Shown piece by piece: positions 37,107-49,262 of a DNA stretch of 64,000 nt. Each line of letters starts with the position of its first letter. Position 1 is the stretch's first letter. Position numbers and translations under genes: made by a program. Under the pieces are notes generated by a model. That model did not search any database, was not told where the DNA came from, and saw only the letters and a list, made by a program, of their open reading frames with translations. This DNA is from Nitrososphaerota archaeon (lineage in GTDB: Archaea; Thermoproteota; Nitrososphaeria; Nitrososphaerales; Nitrosopumilaceae). The stretch is from NCBI GenBank assembly GCA_028867755.1, contig JAGWFT010000002.1, positions 64,001-128,000 of the forward strand. The letters are read 5' to 3'.

Positions 37107-37120
37107 TTTAAAAAGTCTTT
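37107..37120 (+). repeat. attL core (also the trpS TATA box on the minus strand)
   Basis: TTTAAAAAGTCTTT, identical to 49249-49262. Confidence 0.8.
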
Positions 37121-37169
37121 ACGGGATGGAACATTAGGGTTTAAAATTACTGTATTCCATAACTATGAT

Positions 37170-38270
37170 ATGGATAGAAGTTTAACAAGATTTTTTGCAG
37201 GTATCAGAACAGAAACGACAAGAGAAATTTATGATAGGTATCTTAGGTATTTTCTAAACTTTGTAAAAATAAAAGAGGCTAACGGATTGTTGCAACTCAA
37301 AGACTCTTACCTTCAAACTATGGTAGAAGATTACATCATACATCTGAAAGGTAGGGGCTTACGCAAATCCTCGATTGACGGGCAAATTTCAGCATTAGAG
37401 TTATTCTTTGCTATGAATGACAAGATATTGAATTTCAAGAAAATTCGCAAGATGTCGCCTATTCAACTAAAGATACAGGGAAACGGCTCTTACACAACAG
37501 ATGACATTAAGCGTATGTTAGAGGCTACCACATCGTTAAGAAACAAGGCTATAATTCACTGCCTTGCGAGTTTGGGTTGTCGCCCTAATGCGTTCTGCGA
37601 TCCGCCGTTAAGATTGAGGCATCTAAAAGAGGTCAAGGATGGATATTATTCAGTTCTAATGTACGAAGGCAGTGTCGAGGAATACAGAGGATACCTTACA
37701 AAAGAGGCTTCGATTTTGGTGAAAATGTATATGAACGAGAGGTCAAGGCAAGGCGAAGTAATTACACCTGATAGTCCACTCTTTCGAAATCTGTATCGTG
37801 TGGTCTTGTCTAAAGCCAAGCCTATGACCATAAAAGGAATCAAGTCCATGATTTTAGAAATTCTCAAAAAGATGCGGGGCAAAGGCAAGAAGAGAGGAGA
37901 GAGGTATGATACTGCGATGATTGGAGGGTTTAGACATCGCTACATCGAGATATGTGCAAAAAACAGGCTAGATGTTAGGTTAGCGGAGAGATTGGTATCA
38001 CATACACCAAAGAGCGCACCGATGGACAAGCATTATGTAAATATCAATAACATACAGGATGAACTCTTTAACGAGTTTTTAAGAATTGAAAGAGATCTTA
38101 CTATCTCAAAAGAAGAGAAGGAACGACTTGGAAGAATTGAAGCGGAGAAGAAAGTTACAGAACTTGAAAATGATAAAGATAAACGTATCTCGGAATTAGA
38201 AGCACAGGCAACAGAGACAAGAGATATGATTAAGGGCATTTATGCTCTCTTGGGAAGAGACACGACTTAG
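37170..38270 (+). CDS. Tyrosine recombinase/integrase
   Basis: SAM-like N-terminus; LGCRPNA (R), GGFRH (HxxR position with H replaced by G), LVSH, KHY (Y); coiled-coil tail. In-frame ATG at 37170. Confidence 0.9.
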   Translation: MDRSLTRFFAGIRTETTREIYDRYLRYFLNFVKIKEANGLLQLKDSYLQTMVEDYIIHLKGRGLRKSSIDGQISALELFFAMNDKILNFKKIRKMSPIQLKIQGNGSYTTDDIKRMLEATTSLRNKAIIHCLASLGCRPNAFCDPPLRLRHLKEVKDGYYSVLMYEGSVEEYRGYLTKEASILVKMYMNERSRQGEVITPDSPLFRNLYRVVLSKAKPMTIKGIKSMILEILKKMRGKGKKRGERYDTAMIGGFRHRYIEICAKNRLDVRLAERLVSHTPKSAPMDKHYVNINNIQDELFNEFLRIERDLTISKEEKERLGRIEAEKKVTELENDKDKRISELEAQATETRDMIKGIYALLGRDTT

Positions 38271-39025
38271 TTGTTTTTTTTAAATTTATTATAAAGAAAT
38301 TTTGTTTGTTGATTTACATTCTTTACTGTTTTTTTGTCATAAGGTGAACCTATCAATGCATTTAGTTTTTTGTAAAGTTGTTTATCAAACCCATATTTTT
38401 CTGCAAACTTGAAATTAAGCCTTATCATGCCTTCGGCAAATCTCACTTCAGAACTATCCGTGACTTTTTTTGAAAAACCATCTATCATGTTTTTTTGATT
38501 TAATTTAGATAATTCATTTAGAAGATTAAAGATATATGGTGCTGAGATTTCTGCTTTCTGAGACGGTGTAAACTTTGGATTGTCGTAAACCTCGAATCTG
38601 AGTAATTTTTTGGCATCGTTTGCAATACTTGGGGTTTTAACAAAACCATCGTCATCAAGGCTAATTTTGAAATAATAACGTGGATGTTTTGACTCTGGAT
38701 TAATTTTCTTAAGTTTGTTGTGTTTGCGAGCATGTAGCAAAACATCACGCAAGCTTGAATCGGAAAGCCCCGTACCCTTTTTAATTTCTGAATGAGTTGA
38801 TTCCCCATGTATGGCTAGGTAATCTGAAACAAGACACCAGTTTAGAACTTCATCTTTTTGCATCAAAGGTCTAATGAATTCGCTCCATTTGTGAGATTTG
38901 ATGGCTTCTGCAATTTCTCCCAAAATTAATTCACTAACGATATGCAATAAAGATGTTTTAACTCTTATGAAAAATTCGTAACATAATGTCATGTTGTAAC
39001 AGCATGTGCATGTGATGTACAACAT
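38267..39025 (-). CDS. wHTH DNA-binding protein (start uncertain, probably shorter)
   Basis: LAIHGESTHSEIKKGTGLSDSSLRDVLLHARKHNKLKK...PRYY winged-helix pattern. Confidence 0.65.
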   Translation of the reverse strand: MLYITCTCCYNMTLCYEFFIRVKTSLLHIVSELILGEIAEAIKSHKWSEFIRPLMQKDEVLNWCLVSDYLAIHGESTHSEIKKGTGLSDSSLRDVLLHARKHNKLKKINPESKHPRYYFKISLDDDGFVKTPSIANDAKKLLRFEVYDNPKFTPSQKAEISAPYIFNLLNELSKLNQKNMIDGFSKKVTDSSEVRFAEGMIRLNFKFAEKYGFDKQLYKKLNALIGSPYDKKTVKNVNQQTKFLYNKFKKNN

Positions 39026-39073
39026 AGGTCTGAAATGTTATGGTGTTATTAATTTGAAAAATATCGATTAAAC

Positions 39074-39391
39074 ATGGCAACAACTAGTATTGTATTCTGT
39101 CCTTGTGGATGTGGACTTGAGATAGACAAAGTTCCACTAATTGAGATTCTATCACATGCTAGAAAAGCCTGTCAGAAAATATTAGGAGAATGGAAAATGC
39201 AAAATGAAACAAAAACAAGTTGGCAATACGGTGTAGCCTTCAACAAAATACAATCCTTCTTTCAAAGAAAGGCTACTTGTCCGTTAGCTGACTGCAAACA
39301 GTATGTTGAGGCACACACAATGATAGAGTGCGTTCAGCACTTGAAGAGTTACCTCAACTCAATTGAATTGGAAGGTGGGCAACCAAAATGA
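39074..39391 (+). CDS. Cys/His-rich, probably Zn-binding, hypothetical protein
   Basis: CPCGCG and CPLADC...H...C...H. Confidence 0.65.
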   Translation: MATTSIVFCPCGCGLEIDKVPLIEILSHARKACQKILGEWKMQNETKTSWQYGVAFNKIQSFFQRKATCPLADCKQYVEAHTMIECVQHLKSYLNSIELEGGQPK

Positions 39392-39900
39392 AAACTATTA
39401 GTGTTGTTGCTCTAATCTCAATTCTACCATTTATTTTTTTTACAAATAACGCAAACGCCTACGTTGAAAACATCCAACTACAAGACCAATCTGGAAATAT
39501 GGTTGCTGTTGGATTGGATAATCCAAGTATAACTGCAATTGAACAGGGTTGGGTTTATGGTTCTGTGCAGACAAGCAATACCCAAGTTGTTCAGAATACA
39601 GGTATGTCGGACTTTGTTTCGCAGATAAAGCCGACACCACTTGGTTCAGAAGTTGACTTTGCTGGAAAGTTGGACAGCACAGCCACTATCAGACTTGTAG
39701 ACAATTCTGGGCAAAGTTGGAGTCTGATCTTGGAACCACAAGTGGGGAAGAAGACTAGCCAAGATGCAAGCAGTGGTAGTATGCCAAGTGTTACAGATGT
39801 CCCATACTACGTCTATGGGATAGTGGGACTGATTGGTGTTGGAACAATCCTACTAATCAGAAGGAGGAAGAGGGAAATTGGTGAAATCAGCAGAGTCTAA
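39388..39900 (+). CDS. Surface protein with a signal peptide and C-terminal TM anchor
   Basis: N-terminal signal ending ANA; C-terminal YYVYGIVGLIGVGTILLI-RRRKR. Confidence 0.7.
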   Translation: MKTISVVALISILPFIFFTNNANAYVENIQLQDQSGNMVAVGLDNPSITAIEQGWVYGSVQTSNTQVVQNTGMSDFVSQIKPTPLGSEVDFAGKLDSTATIRLVDNSGQSWSLILEPQVGKKTSQDASSGSMPSVTDVPYYVYGIVGLIGVGTILLIRRRKREIGEISRV

Positions 39901-48518: not shown

Positions 48519-48665
48519 TTAACTATGTAATTCTTTGAGAAGTTCTTCTAAAGTGCTTCGTTTTATCTTGCCTTTGGCTTTATCGGACTCGTATTCTTTG
48601 ATATCTGCTATCTCTTCTGGTGTGAGATCGTCTTCTACTTTGGTCTTCTTTGTGGCTCGTTGCAT
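48519..48665 (-). CDS. 48-aa antitoxin (RelB-like), immediately upstream of the toxin
   Basis: Manual translation MQRATKKTKVEDDLTPEEIADIKEYESDKAKGKIKRSTLEELLKELHS. Confidence 0.7.
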   Translation of the reverse strand: MQRATKKTKVEDDLTPEEIADIKEYESDKAKGKIKRSTLEELLKELHS

Positions 48666-48674
48666 GTTACCTTC

Positions 48675-48739
48675 ACTATGTTATAGCATAGTAGAATAAT
48701 TAAAACTATGTGTAACTATTGTAACTATGTTTGACTATT
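48675..48739. repeat. ACTAT iteron-like repeats plus a small inverted repeat upstream of the antitoxin
   Basis: ACTAT at 48705, 48715, 48724 and 48734; ACTATG/CATAGT inverted repeat at 48675-48692. Confidence 0.55.
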
Positions 48740-48749
48740 GAAGACGCTC

Positions 48750-49150
48750 AGTCTCAATTCACCCCGTCCCACGGACACCCCTCTTGAGACTTCGCTTTTT
48801 GTCTAATTGACGAAATCCTCGCTCACCTCTAACACCAGGATCGTAAAACTCTCTTGGTGTTTTTTTGCTTACGCAAAACCGAGGCTCACCGAGGTAGAGG
48901 TAAAATTTCGCAGTTCGTTAGCCAATTCACCCCGTCTGCTTTGCAGACACCCCTCTTGGCTATCTCTCTACTTCATCCTAACTTTGTTCGGACGGCACGA
49001 TTTCCTTCGTGCCGTTTTCCCTCTACCTCGCTTCGGACGGCTGCCGTTGGCAGCCTCTCGCCCTTCGGGCTCGCCTCGCTCGGATTTCGTAGGGGTCTCC
49101 GCTTCGCTCCGCACTCCTTCGACTTCGTTGATAGTCGTTTGGCAGGGGTT
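48750..49150. other. GC-rich, extensively base-paired noncoding segment (structured ncRNA or ssDNA origin)
   Basis: Nested perfect stems (48810-18/49082-90, 48890-900/49020-30, 48992-49000/49007-15, 49039-45/49049-55) and two covarying internal-loop hairpins. Confidence 0.75.
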
Positions 49151-49248
49151 TGTCTAAGAATATGTTAGAATGGTTGATTTGTGATAAGACAGAAAATTAA
49201 AGGTTGAAGCGTTGGATAGTATGATATTTTAAACCACAAAAAGCATGC

Positions 49249-49262
49249 TTTAAAAAGTCTTT
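49249..49262 (+). repeat. attR core (also the pheS TATA box)
   Basis: TTTAAAAAGTCTTT, identical to 37107-37120; the TATA part ends at 49256, 23 nt before the pheS ATG. Confidence 0.8.

Follow-up and report, generated by a model that had tools for sequence, protein, structure and literature searches.

A 12.1-kb integrative element and integrase-less cassettes at a putative shared TATA box between trpS and pheS in Nitrosotalea

Integrases of archaea and bacteria are best known for inserting DNA into tRNA genes, which are safe landing sites owing to their conservation and symmetry. In systems of the streptococcal ICESt1/ICESt3 type, small att-flanked modules that lack an integrase, the cis-mobilizable elements (CIMEs), lie beside a full integrative and conjugative element (ICE) at its attachment site attB or replace it there; they can occur in tandem and are presumably mobilized in trans. 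Integrons, which combine the recombinase IntI with an attI site and attC cassettes, include some reported in archaeal metagenome-assembled genomes. Here we describe a 64-kb stretch of DNA, referred to as the window (positions 64001-128000 of contig C35), from the Nitrosotalea genome G000, an assembly of 1.64 Mb with 38% GC. In this window, a 12.1-kb insert carrying a tyrosine recombinase gene separates the divergent genes trpS and pheS. An earlier reading of the window, which we call the original prediction, had proposed that this insert is an integrative element whose attachment core is the bidirectional TATA box of the two genes.

Integrated elements have been surveyed in the same host phylum. 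Krupovic et al. 2019 (PMC6563490) catalogued 74 thaumarchaeal elements, 68 of which have defined sites (39 in tRNA genes, 15 intergenic and 14 at the 3' ends of genes), with att sequences of a median length of 17 bp and a minimum of 8. A 2021 review of archaeal tyrosine recombinases (PMC8371274) mentions intergenic targets and describes the replacement of tRNA promoters by pTN3-type elements; the word 'TATA' does not occur in it. Shared TATA boxes are known from studies of transcription. In T. kodakarensis, the predominant spacing of divergent transcription start sites (TSSs) around a shared TATA box is 52 bp (Warman et al. preprint, 10.1101/2020.01.31.928960), and bidirectional transcription from a single TTTAAA-type TATA box of P. 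furiosus has been reproduced in vitro (Gruenberger et al. 2019, PMC6640164).

Boundaries and empty site of the element

The 14-mer TTTAAAAAGTCTTT is present twice on the plus strand of the window, at 37107-37120 and 49249-49262, and there is no third copy in the 64 kb even when one mismatch is allowed. The left copy adjoins the left host flank, trpS, which encodes tryptophan-tRNA ligase on the minus strand (35969..37084, with its ATG at 37084; PF00579 match, NF008927 score of 513.9 versus a cut-off of 478). The right copy adjoins the right host flank (49279..52337, plus strand), which consists of pheS (49279-50712, with its ATG at 49279), identified as PheRS alpha by NF003210 (score of 477 versus a cut-off of 350), and pheT (50682-52337), identified by TIGR00471 (499 versus 283). 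Between the trpS ATG and the left core lie 22 nt, the B arm (37085..37106), which is the host half of a 52-bp spacer and is near-identical in relatives with an empty site. The attL core (37107..37120, plus strand) holds the TATA-like TTTAAA(AA) for trpS together with 6 nt on the side of the B recognition element (BRE). The integrated body of the element follows (37121..49248, plus strand) and ends in the P arm TTTTAAACCACAAAAAGCATGC (49227..49248, plus strand), the element-side arm of attR, which is now the upstream, BRE-side flank of the pheS box. The attR core (49249..49262, plus strand), an exact repeat of the attL core with the TATA-like box for pheS, leads into the 16-nt B' arm (49263..49278), which reaches the pheS ATG and matches the empty-site relatives.

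The starts of the two core copies are 12,142 bp apart, and the whole insert including one core copy spans 37121-49262. The figure of 12,142 bp is thus the total that excision would remove (one core plus 12,128 bp) and not the DNA strictly between the copies. When one core and the intervening DNA are removed in silico, a 52-bp trpS/pheS spacer remains that is like the spacers of relatives. All coordinates and distances of the original prediction were correct, and the 52-bp divergent spacer that it expected after excision was recovered both by this reconstruction and in genomes with an empty site.

We looked for that empty site across the genus. TrpRS loci retrieved from 28 relatives included 8 congeners in which pheS lies 52 bp from trpS with one 14-mer between them; trpS orthologues in congeners are 85-95% identical. 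We then compared a 452-nt probe, made up of the trpS 5' end, the spacer and the pheS 5' end, with 61 Nitrosotalea genomes (probe identity 73-95%). The probe is contiguous, indicating an empty site, in 33 genomes, all of which have trpS and pheS 52 bp apart and lack the element body. It is split on a single contig, indicating an occupied site, in 15 genomes including G000, and split across contigs in 3; the remaining genomes matched on one side only or not at all. One genome, G058, is counted as both empty and occupied, as it has both copies on different contigs. Five genomes (G010, G011, G029, G038 and G044) are flagged as unpublished, and no conclusion rests on these five. Among the sites counted above, they account for 2 of the 33 empty ones (G010, G011), 2 of the 15 occupied on one contig (G029, G044) and one split site (G038); the closest sibling of the element (G044:C70) and one P-arm match (G010) are also theirs. 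The analysis of spacer conservation and the structure alignment used public genomes only.

Comparison with the empty sites places both junctions at the edges of the 14-mer. On the left, window and empty site agree through the final T of the core and differ from there on; on the right, element DNA runs up to the base before the core, and the empty-site sequence continues from the core onward. The doubt left by the original prediction as to whether the true boundaries lie elsewhere is thereby answered, and trpS and pheS are indeed neighbors with a single 14-mer in relatives, as it had suggested they should be. The spacers of 8 public species all agree at 46 of 52 positions, among them a 31-nt block (AGTTAGG...TTTTTGG) centered on the core, while the coding flanks differ by 5-27%. 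The site is empty in the nearest species by TrpRS (95% identical), which indicates that the insertion is recent. Among named organisms, Ca. N. devanaterra has an empty site and Ca. N. okcheonensis CS a 913-bp cassette. Extra exact copies of the 14-mer at position 851,493 of N. devanaterra and at the orthologous locus of G035 are without arms and are for that reason taken as unrelated. Given repeats that are identical at 14 of 14 positions, 33 empty sites and breakpoints at the repeat edges, we regard site-specific integration at this core as very likely.

Two other kinds of origin were considered for the insert as such. A transposon is ruled out by the 14-bp duplication at one fixed site, by the lack of any transposase family in Pfam, NCBIfam and PHROGs, and by ends without terminal inverted repeats (the P' arm starts ACGGGATGG and the P arm ends ...AAGCATGC). 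A tRNA gene as target is likewise ruled out, the only tRNAs in the window being at 28.5 and 31.7 kb.

The integrase and the candidate promoter core

The first gene inside the insert (37170..38270, plus strand) encodes an intact tyrosine recombinase of 366 aa, in agreement with the original prediction of an integrative element. The gene begins 50 nt inside attL and has its own TTTAAAAT box 22 nt before its ATG. Its N-terminal half is matched by NF040815 (XerA) with an E value of 5e-10, and pairwise alignment with P. abyssi XerA places GCR, FRH and SH at active-site positions. In an alignment of 10 family members, R138, R255, H278 and Y289 are invariant, while the catalytic Lys is not assignable; a profile built from these 10 members finds XerA (4a8e/5hxy) in the PDB with an E value of 4e-7. 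The AlphaFold2 model of the integrase has a mean predicted local distance difference test (pLDDT) score of 78.5, and its top Foldseek matches in the PDB are all tyrosine recombinases (XerA 5hxy with an E value of 3e-8, Cre, XerH, IntI and Tn1549 Int). Model, Foldseek matches and profile all agree on the two-domain fold of tyrosine recombinases, with an N-terminal SAM-like core-binding domain and a C-terminal catalytic domain. The window integrase is the most divergent member of its family. Since integration leaves its open reading frame (ORF) unsplit, the layout is of the pNOB8 type, with att outside the gene, and not of the suicidal SSV type, in which attP lies inside the integrase gene. Integrases of this family are frequent in the genus (39 of 59 genomes have matches), and neither the core nor trpS was found beside the 20 best integrase loci of 58 congeners.

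To judge whether the core may be a TATA box, we scanned the whole assembly for TTTA[AT]A upstream of the ATG of 1,312 crude ORF starts. Hexamer starts are concentrated 33-28 nt upstream of the ATG: these six positions have 6, 10, 10, 22, 10 and 14 of them (72 genes in all), compared to about 2 per position elsewhere. Such a peak is the positional signature expected of TATA boxes when mRNAs are leaderless or nearly so. In the core, the palindromic TTTAAA begins 30 nt ahead of the pheS ATG, at the mode of the distribution, and 28 nt ahead of the trpS ATG. The box, TTTAAAAA / TTTTTAAA on the two strands, is separated from each ATG by a gap of 22 nt, such that the A of the ATG is the 23rd base past the box. 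The spacer is therefore laid out as 22 nt, an 8-nt box and 22 nt, and because it is only 52 bp long, the preferred distance leads from both genes to one and the same 8-bp box. This layout matches the published geometry of shared TATA boxes only if both mRNAs are leaderless, as they probably are. The original prediction that the core is a TATA box is thus supported by the modal distance to both genes and by the 52-bp geometry, and we consider that the core probably functions as a shared bidirectional TATA box.

Under the mechanism that we propose, 37121-49262 would be a 12.1-kb integrative element, plasmid-like or ICE-like, whose own tyrosine recombinase would have joined an attP site (P arm, 14-bp core, P' arm) to an attB site at the center of the 52-bp spacer between trpS and pheS-pheT. 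Integration would double the TATA box and leave one copy to each gene, since no TATA-like box other than the one within the 14-bp segment of identity lies at the canonical distance from both start codons. Both essential genes would stay transcribed, probably as leaderless mRNAs, because each keeps its box and its downstream region. The original prediction had also held that integration swaps the BRE-side flanks of both genes. This is fully the case for pheS, which keeps its box and downstream region while its whole upstream flank is now the P arm of the element (...CAAAAAGCATGC), but not for trpS, which keeps the box, the AAAGAC on its BRE side (read on its own strand; both lie within the core) and the 22-nt downstream region, with changes only beyond those 6 nt.

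Cassettes, sibling elements and cargo

The same core is occupied repeatedly in the genus. In 14 other genomes, inserts of 0.63-2.07 kb lie at this core, and none of them contains an integrase. Each has the core at its left and, at its right, a conserved P arm, TTTTAA[A/G]CCNCAAAAAG[C/T]AT[G/A]C, followed by the core, which has one substitution in a few of these genomes; the same P arm precedes the right-hand core of every cassette at the trpS/pheS site in other genomes. Many of the inserts are also alike in the P' arm (ATGGTAAACTGGCA...) and in approximately 100-170 nt of 5' sequence (74-85% identity) ahead of unrelated cargo. This common 5' module comprises a TATA-like box and a signal-peptide start, MKTLH (loci L022, L046, L050, L051 and L052), and could be either a required attP arm or a promoter/leader module onto which cargo recombines. 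Each cassette gene has its own TATA-like box approximately 30 nt before its start codon. The cargo includes a secreted Hint-domain protein, a cupredoxin, a CitMHS-family transporter, a glyoxalase/bleomycin-resistance protein, a HicAB pair and several secreted proteins without a family.

Cassettes also occur in tandem. In G016 and G002 the Hint cassette stands by itself, in G003 the cupredoxin cassette comes after it, and in G061 the cupredoxin cassette stands by itself; G014 carries at least 3 units. The cassette-to-cassette junctions of G003 and G014 consist of P arm, core and P' arm (P arm, core, ATGGTAAAC...) and are thus attP-like. No integrase lies beside the cassette arrays of G003, G012, G016, G041, G046, G053, G059 and G061. 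The largest other insert, at least 7.6 kb in G060 (L084, G060:C21:3200-9251), has a gene for a surface protein longer than 1,199 aa, in which Laminin_G_3 and MG2 domains are recognized, and shows no integrase in its assembled part. In an order-wide sample, 6 of 7 Nitrosotalea genomes had the P arm-plus-core motif, as did 0 of 294 genomes of 74 other genera, and a reversed-pattern control gave zero everywhere. We consider that the cassettes are probably small, attP-bearing modules of a CIME-like kind, inserted in trans by site-specific recombination, and that homologous exchange through the conserved flanks probably helps them to spread. The core is a genus-wide hot spot at which related integrase-less, attP-bearing modules have been inserted, sometimes in tandem.

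Three further occurrences of the arms were noted. An orphan 587-bp contig of G000 (C66; locus L055) is 97% identical to the Hint/cupredoxin junction of G003, which comprises P arm, core and P' arm. A cassette allele of the hot spot is probably also present, either in the population sampled or in a strain binned together with it. A third P arm plus core in G000 (C24:899424-899458, minus strand; L054:1927-2064) lies between a gene for a 202-aa secreted protein and the sucC promoter. No second core copy was found near it, and it may represent the remnant of a cassette or a site of secondary insertion. Finally, at L093 in Ca. N. devanaterra (LN890280, ~1,025,002-1,029,342), a P arm with one mismatch and the core lie 3.3 kb from an integrase of the family that is 33% identical. 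This locus, whose coordinates are not among the NitDev elements in the part of Table S2 of the published catalogue available to us, may be an uncatalogued element or remnant.

The element itself belongs to a family. Sibling elements in G044, G062, G013 and other genomes have in common the integrase, a 170-aa protein, a 337-aa protein, an ATPase and a GC-rich region. The sibling in G013 is 11.1 kb long (L112:2776-13896, on G013:C4), is bounded by the 15-nt repeat TAAAAAACATTAGGA, and encodes a 170-aa protein and a 337-aa protein that are 63% and 74% identical to those of the window; its integrase gene is broken by a frameshift and a TGA. It sits in the 33 nt that separate a thiL-like gene from rps11. 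G000 has this site empty (C35:134126-134158), and the G013 junctions match it to the base. The attB there reads GGGTTTAAAAAAC, with a T/A run starting approximately 28-25 nt before the rps11 ATG, and the trpS/pheS and rps11 targets have GGTTTAAAAA in common. Thus, both of the two resolved targets of the element family are TATA-like boxes directly before essential translation genes, a pattern that at n=2 is suggestive. Searches for short repeats around the siblings of G044, G062 and G072 gave no convincing att pair, which limits the statement to the G013 site. As a separate observation, the P' arm of the window element (37128-37147) contains AACATTAGGGTTTAAAAT, close to the core and flank of the att site of the G013 sibling (TTTAAAAAACATTAGGA), and this may be a trace of an ancestral att specificity kept beside the new one.

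A GC-rich, apparently structured non-coding region of approximately 400 nt (48745..49150, plus strand) adjoins attR. It is conserved among members of the element family, and 18 other congeners have matching DNA. When five sequences were aligned, 29 of 80 predicted pairs kept pairing through changes on both sides; these include a long-range stem (48890-48905/49015-49030) and two hairpins whose stems are fully swapped in G064. An Rfam search of 36500-50000 with E values up to 1 gave no match, which sets the region apart from the described RNA families. A structured RNA is one possibility, a single-strand DNA structure or origin another.

All large ORFs of the insert are open. Behind the integrase, on the minus strand, lies a gene for a 252-aa protein of unassigned function (38267..39025) without a Pfam or NCBIfam match, possibly a winged helix-turn-helix regulator judging from weak MarR-like and Ren-like PHROG matches (E values of 0.005-0.04). 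A co-oriented block then encodes a 105-aa Cys-rich protein; the 170-aa protein (39388..39900, plus strand), apparently secreted and anchored in the membrane by its C-terminus, given a signal-like N-terminus, a C-terminal transmembrane segment with a basic tail and a weak Loki-CTERM match; the 337-aa protein (39878..40891, plus strand), which is the best-conserved protein of the element family and has no Pfam, NCBIfam, PHROG or PADLOC family; a 594-aa AAA_10 ATPase of the VirB4/TraC/CedB type (41003..42787, plus strand); and membrane proteins, one of them a 301-aa multi-pass protein recognized by its hydrophobic translation and weakly conserved in the G013 sibling (42775..43680, plus strand). 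The ATPase matches PF12846 above its cut-off (33.3 versus 27.5), with weak matches to CedB (7e-11) and TraC (1e-4), and has homologues in the siblings of G044, G062 and G013; it is likely a DNA-transfer motor. An ICE would combine a VirB4-like ATPase with a coupling protein or relaxase and a mating-pore set; membrane and surface proteins lie near the ATPase of the window element, and Pfam, NCBIfam and PHROG scans of its proteins gave no relaxase or VirD4 family. The remaining cargo includes a 991-aa GmrSD-like (DUF262) protein assigned to defence (45094..48069, plus strand; PF03235 with an E value of 5e-30; PADLOC PDC-M55C and HEC-05) and, on the minus strand (48254..48665), a RelE-family toxin (48254-48517; phrog_1213 with an E value of 7e-8, TIGR02385 with 3e-4) with an upstream 48-aa ORF (48519-48665) that is, from its position, a candidate antitoxin.

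Competing explanations and known systems

Taken as a whole, integrase-driven insertion into a shared promoter core appears to us a likely explanation of this locus. Several observations count against it, and they are given here with the alternatives on which they bear. If the 14-mer pair were a chance or convergent TATA similarity, with the true boundaries elsewhere, the AT-rich sequence would favor such a match, and in shuffled windows 0.14 matches to TTTAAAAAGTCTTT are expected, with two or more in 1 of 100 shuffles; this reading is nevertheless refuted by 33 empty sites with both breakpoints at the 14-mer edges and by the independent inserts of 14 other genomes that use the same edges, and it retains next to no probability. 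The core might instead be a mere AT-rich intergenic target, as for lambda and psiM100, and not a working TATA box, in which case the two genes would depend on different promoter elements and its duplication would have no role in expression. Many archaeal and bacterial att sites are AT-rich, and the intergenic integration of psiM100 has been reported to be without effect on its neighbors (PMC8371274). Moreover, the alignment of the 72 putative promoters gave no clear BRE consensus or detectable BRE-like conservation, a literature search found nothing specific on TSSs or leaderless mRNAs in Nitrosotalea, and the strict hexamer falls in the peak in only approximately 5% of the crude gene set, so that the promoter argument is positional and not a proof. 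Against this stand the 52-bp spacer, which forces any box at the preferred distance from either ATG onto the same 8 bp, the invariance of the 31-nt block around the core between divergent coding flanks, a geometry equal to that of published shared-TATA promoters, and a sibling element that also sits on a TATA-like box, just before rps11. We consider a merely AT-rich target unlikely.

The other two alternatives concern the history of the insert. The locus could be a flexible island varied mainly by homologous recombination through the trpS and pheS flanks, with the element having arrived as a pre-assembled allele and its repeats being inherited scars. The high conservation of the flanks (the 73-95% identity of the probe), the recurrence of the Hint, cupredoxin and CitMHS cassettes across species in varied combinations, and the orphan contig C66, whose 97% identity to the G003 cassette junction suggests co-existing alleles, are all consistent with this. 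However, all inserts, irrespective of cargo, have the core at their boundaries together with element-type arms, tandem units are separated by P arm-core-P' arm junctions as site-specific insertion predicts, and an intact integrase lies at attL; exchange can spread alleles but does not explain their creation, and the two processes are compatible. As the main cause, we judge such exchange quite improbable. That the P' arms of the cassettes differ from that of this element raises a related difficulty, since another integrase may have mobilized the cassettes. Nor was this element, or a homologous integrase, found at the trpS/pheS site in a second genome among 58 congeners; in place of the integrase homologues for which the original prediction proposed a search, integrase-less cassettes sit there. 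It is possible, if doubtful, that the element is a fixed relic of site-specific origin whose recombinase is now defective and whose excision is lost. The window integrase fails to match PF00589 at an E value of 0.01, although 9 of 10 relatives match; the first catalytic-box His, present in 9 of 10 relatives, is Gly in this protein (H252G); and the H278-Y289 stretch of its model has a pLDDT below 50. Because of these three features it may be impaired. The integrase of the G013 sibling is broken, and an attP form was not seen in public contig collections, a degenerate P arm-core-P' pattern being absent from viral contigs and the window-specific junction from metagenome contigs, which is a weak negative. 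On the other side, the cores are still identical at all 14 positions, no large ORF is interrupted, the remaining catalytic residues are retained, and the insertion is recent. Integrase-driven insertion into the shared promoter core is therefore the explanation that we retain; as to whether the element can still excise, we lean somewhat toward the view that it cannot.

On this explanation, the landing site would be the core element of a promoter common to two essential genes, and recombination itself would duplicate that element. TATA-box symmetry would thus offer a second logic for a safe, conserved and undeletable att site. Integration would also provide a natural experiment on the sequence upstream of TATA boxes in archaea, because the flank of pheS has been exchanged and that of trpS has not; strains with an empty and with an occupied site are already in culture. 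The hot spot would explain part of the turnover of accessory genes (cupredoxins, transporters, toxin-antitoxin pairs and surface proteins) in acidophilic ammonia oxidizers. To our knowledge, Thaumarchaeota are without a genetic tool of the kind for which the 14-bp core, the short arms and the integrase are candidates. More speculatively, and with considerable reservation, a thaumarchaeal integrase clade might be specialized on the TATA boxes of essential translation genes (trpS/pheS and rps11), with the trpS/pheS box serving as an integron-like capture platform on which integrase-less, single-gene modules with conserved attP arms are inserted, stacked and exchanged in trans. Every insertion would then restore the promoter box and reflank pheS, so that the mobile DNA would be sheltered by a target that cannot be deleted and could also tune the expression of the aminoacyl-tRNA synthetases.

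Compared to the elements catalogued by Krupovic et al. 2019 (PMC6563490), the window element is similar in its host phylum and genus, in its intact integrase gene with att outside, and in its short att; theirs likewise include intergenic sites, tandem integrations and defence and toxin-antitoxin cargo. It differs in that no promoter or TATA target is described there, and, within the part of the supplementary table available to us, neither AAAAGTC nor its complement occurs among the att sequences and the 913-bp cassette of N. okcheonensis CS is not listed. The core set of the window element (337-aa protein, ATPase and structured region) matches no named family. As in pTN3-type integration into the 5' half of a tRNA gene (PMC8371274), the upstream control region of an essential host gene is replaced by element-supplied sequence. 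The pTN3-type integrases, however, are suicidal, SSV-type enzymes that split their own gene and target a tRNA, whereas here the gene is intact, the target is the promoter of protein genes and the core promoter box itself is duplicated. With the published shared-TATA promoters (10.1101/2020.01.31.928960; PMC6640164), the locus has in common a symmetric TTTAAA-type box midway between divergent starts approximately 50-52 bp apart; those reports concern transcription only, and no use of the box as a recombination site is reported in them.

The cassettes of Nitrosotalea are att-flanked, integrase-less and stacked at the same attB, as are CIMEs, but their host is an archaeon, their attB is a promoter TATA box and not the end of a gene, and single-gene cassettes predominate. 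With integrons they have in common a tyrosine-recombinase system, a fixed insertion point and mostly single-gene, co-oriented cassettes of varied cargo. In contrast to integrons, no resident integrase lies beside the arrays, there is no folded site of the attC type, each junction is a full core with arms, and the cassettes bring their own TATA-like box and do not rely on a platform promoter; judged by resident intI, attI, Pc and attC, the cassette arrays are not integrons. Thus, the element itself is ordinary, being integrative, plasmid-like and equipped with a tyrosine recombinase, and what is undescribed and of mechanistic interest is its target at a promoter box, while the stacking of cassettes resembles, by analogy, the accretion of CIMEs and, superficially, integrons.

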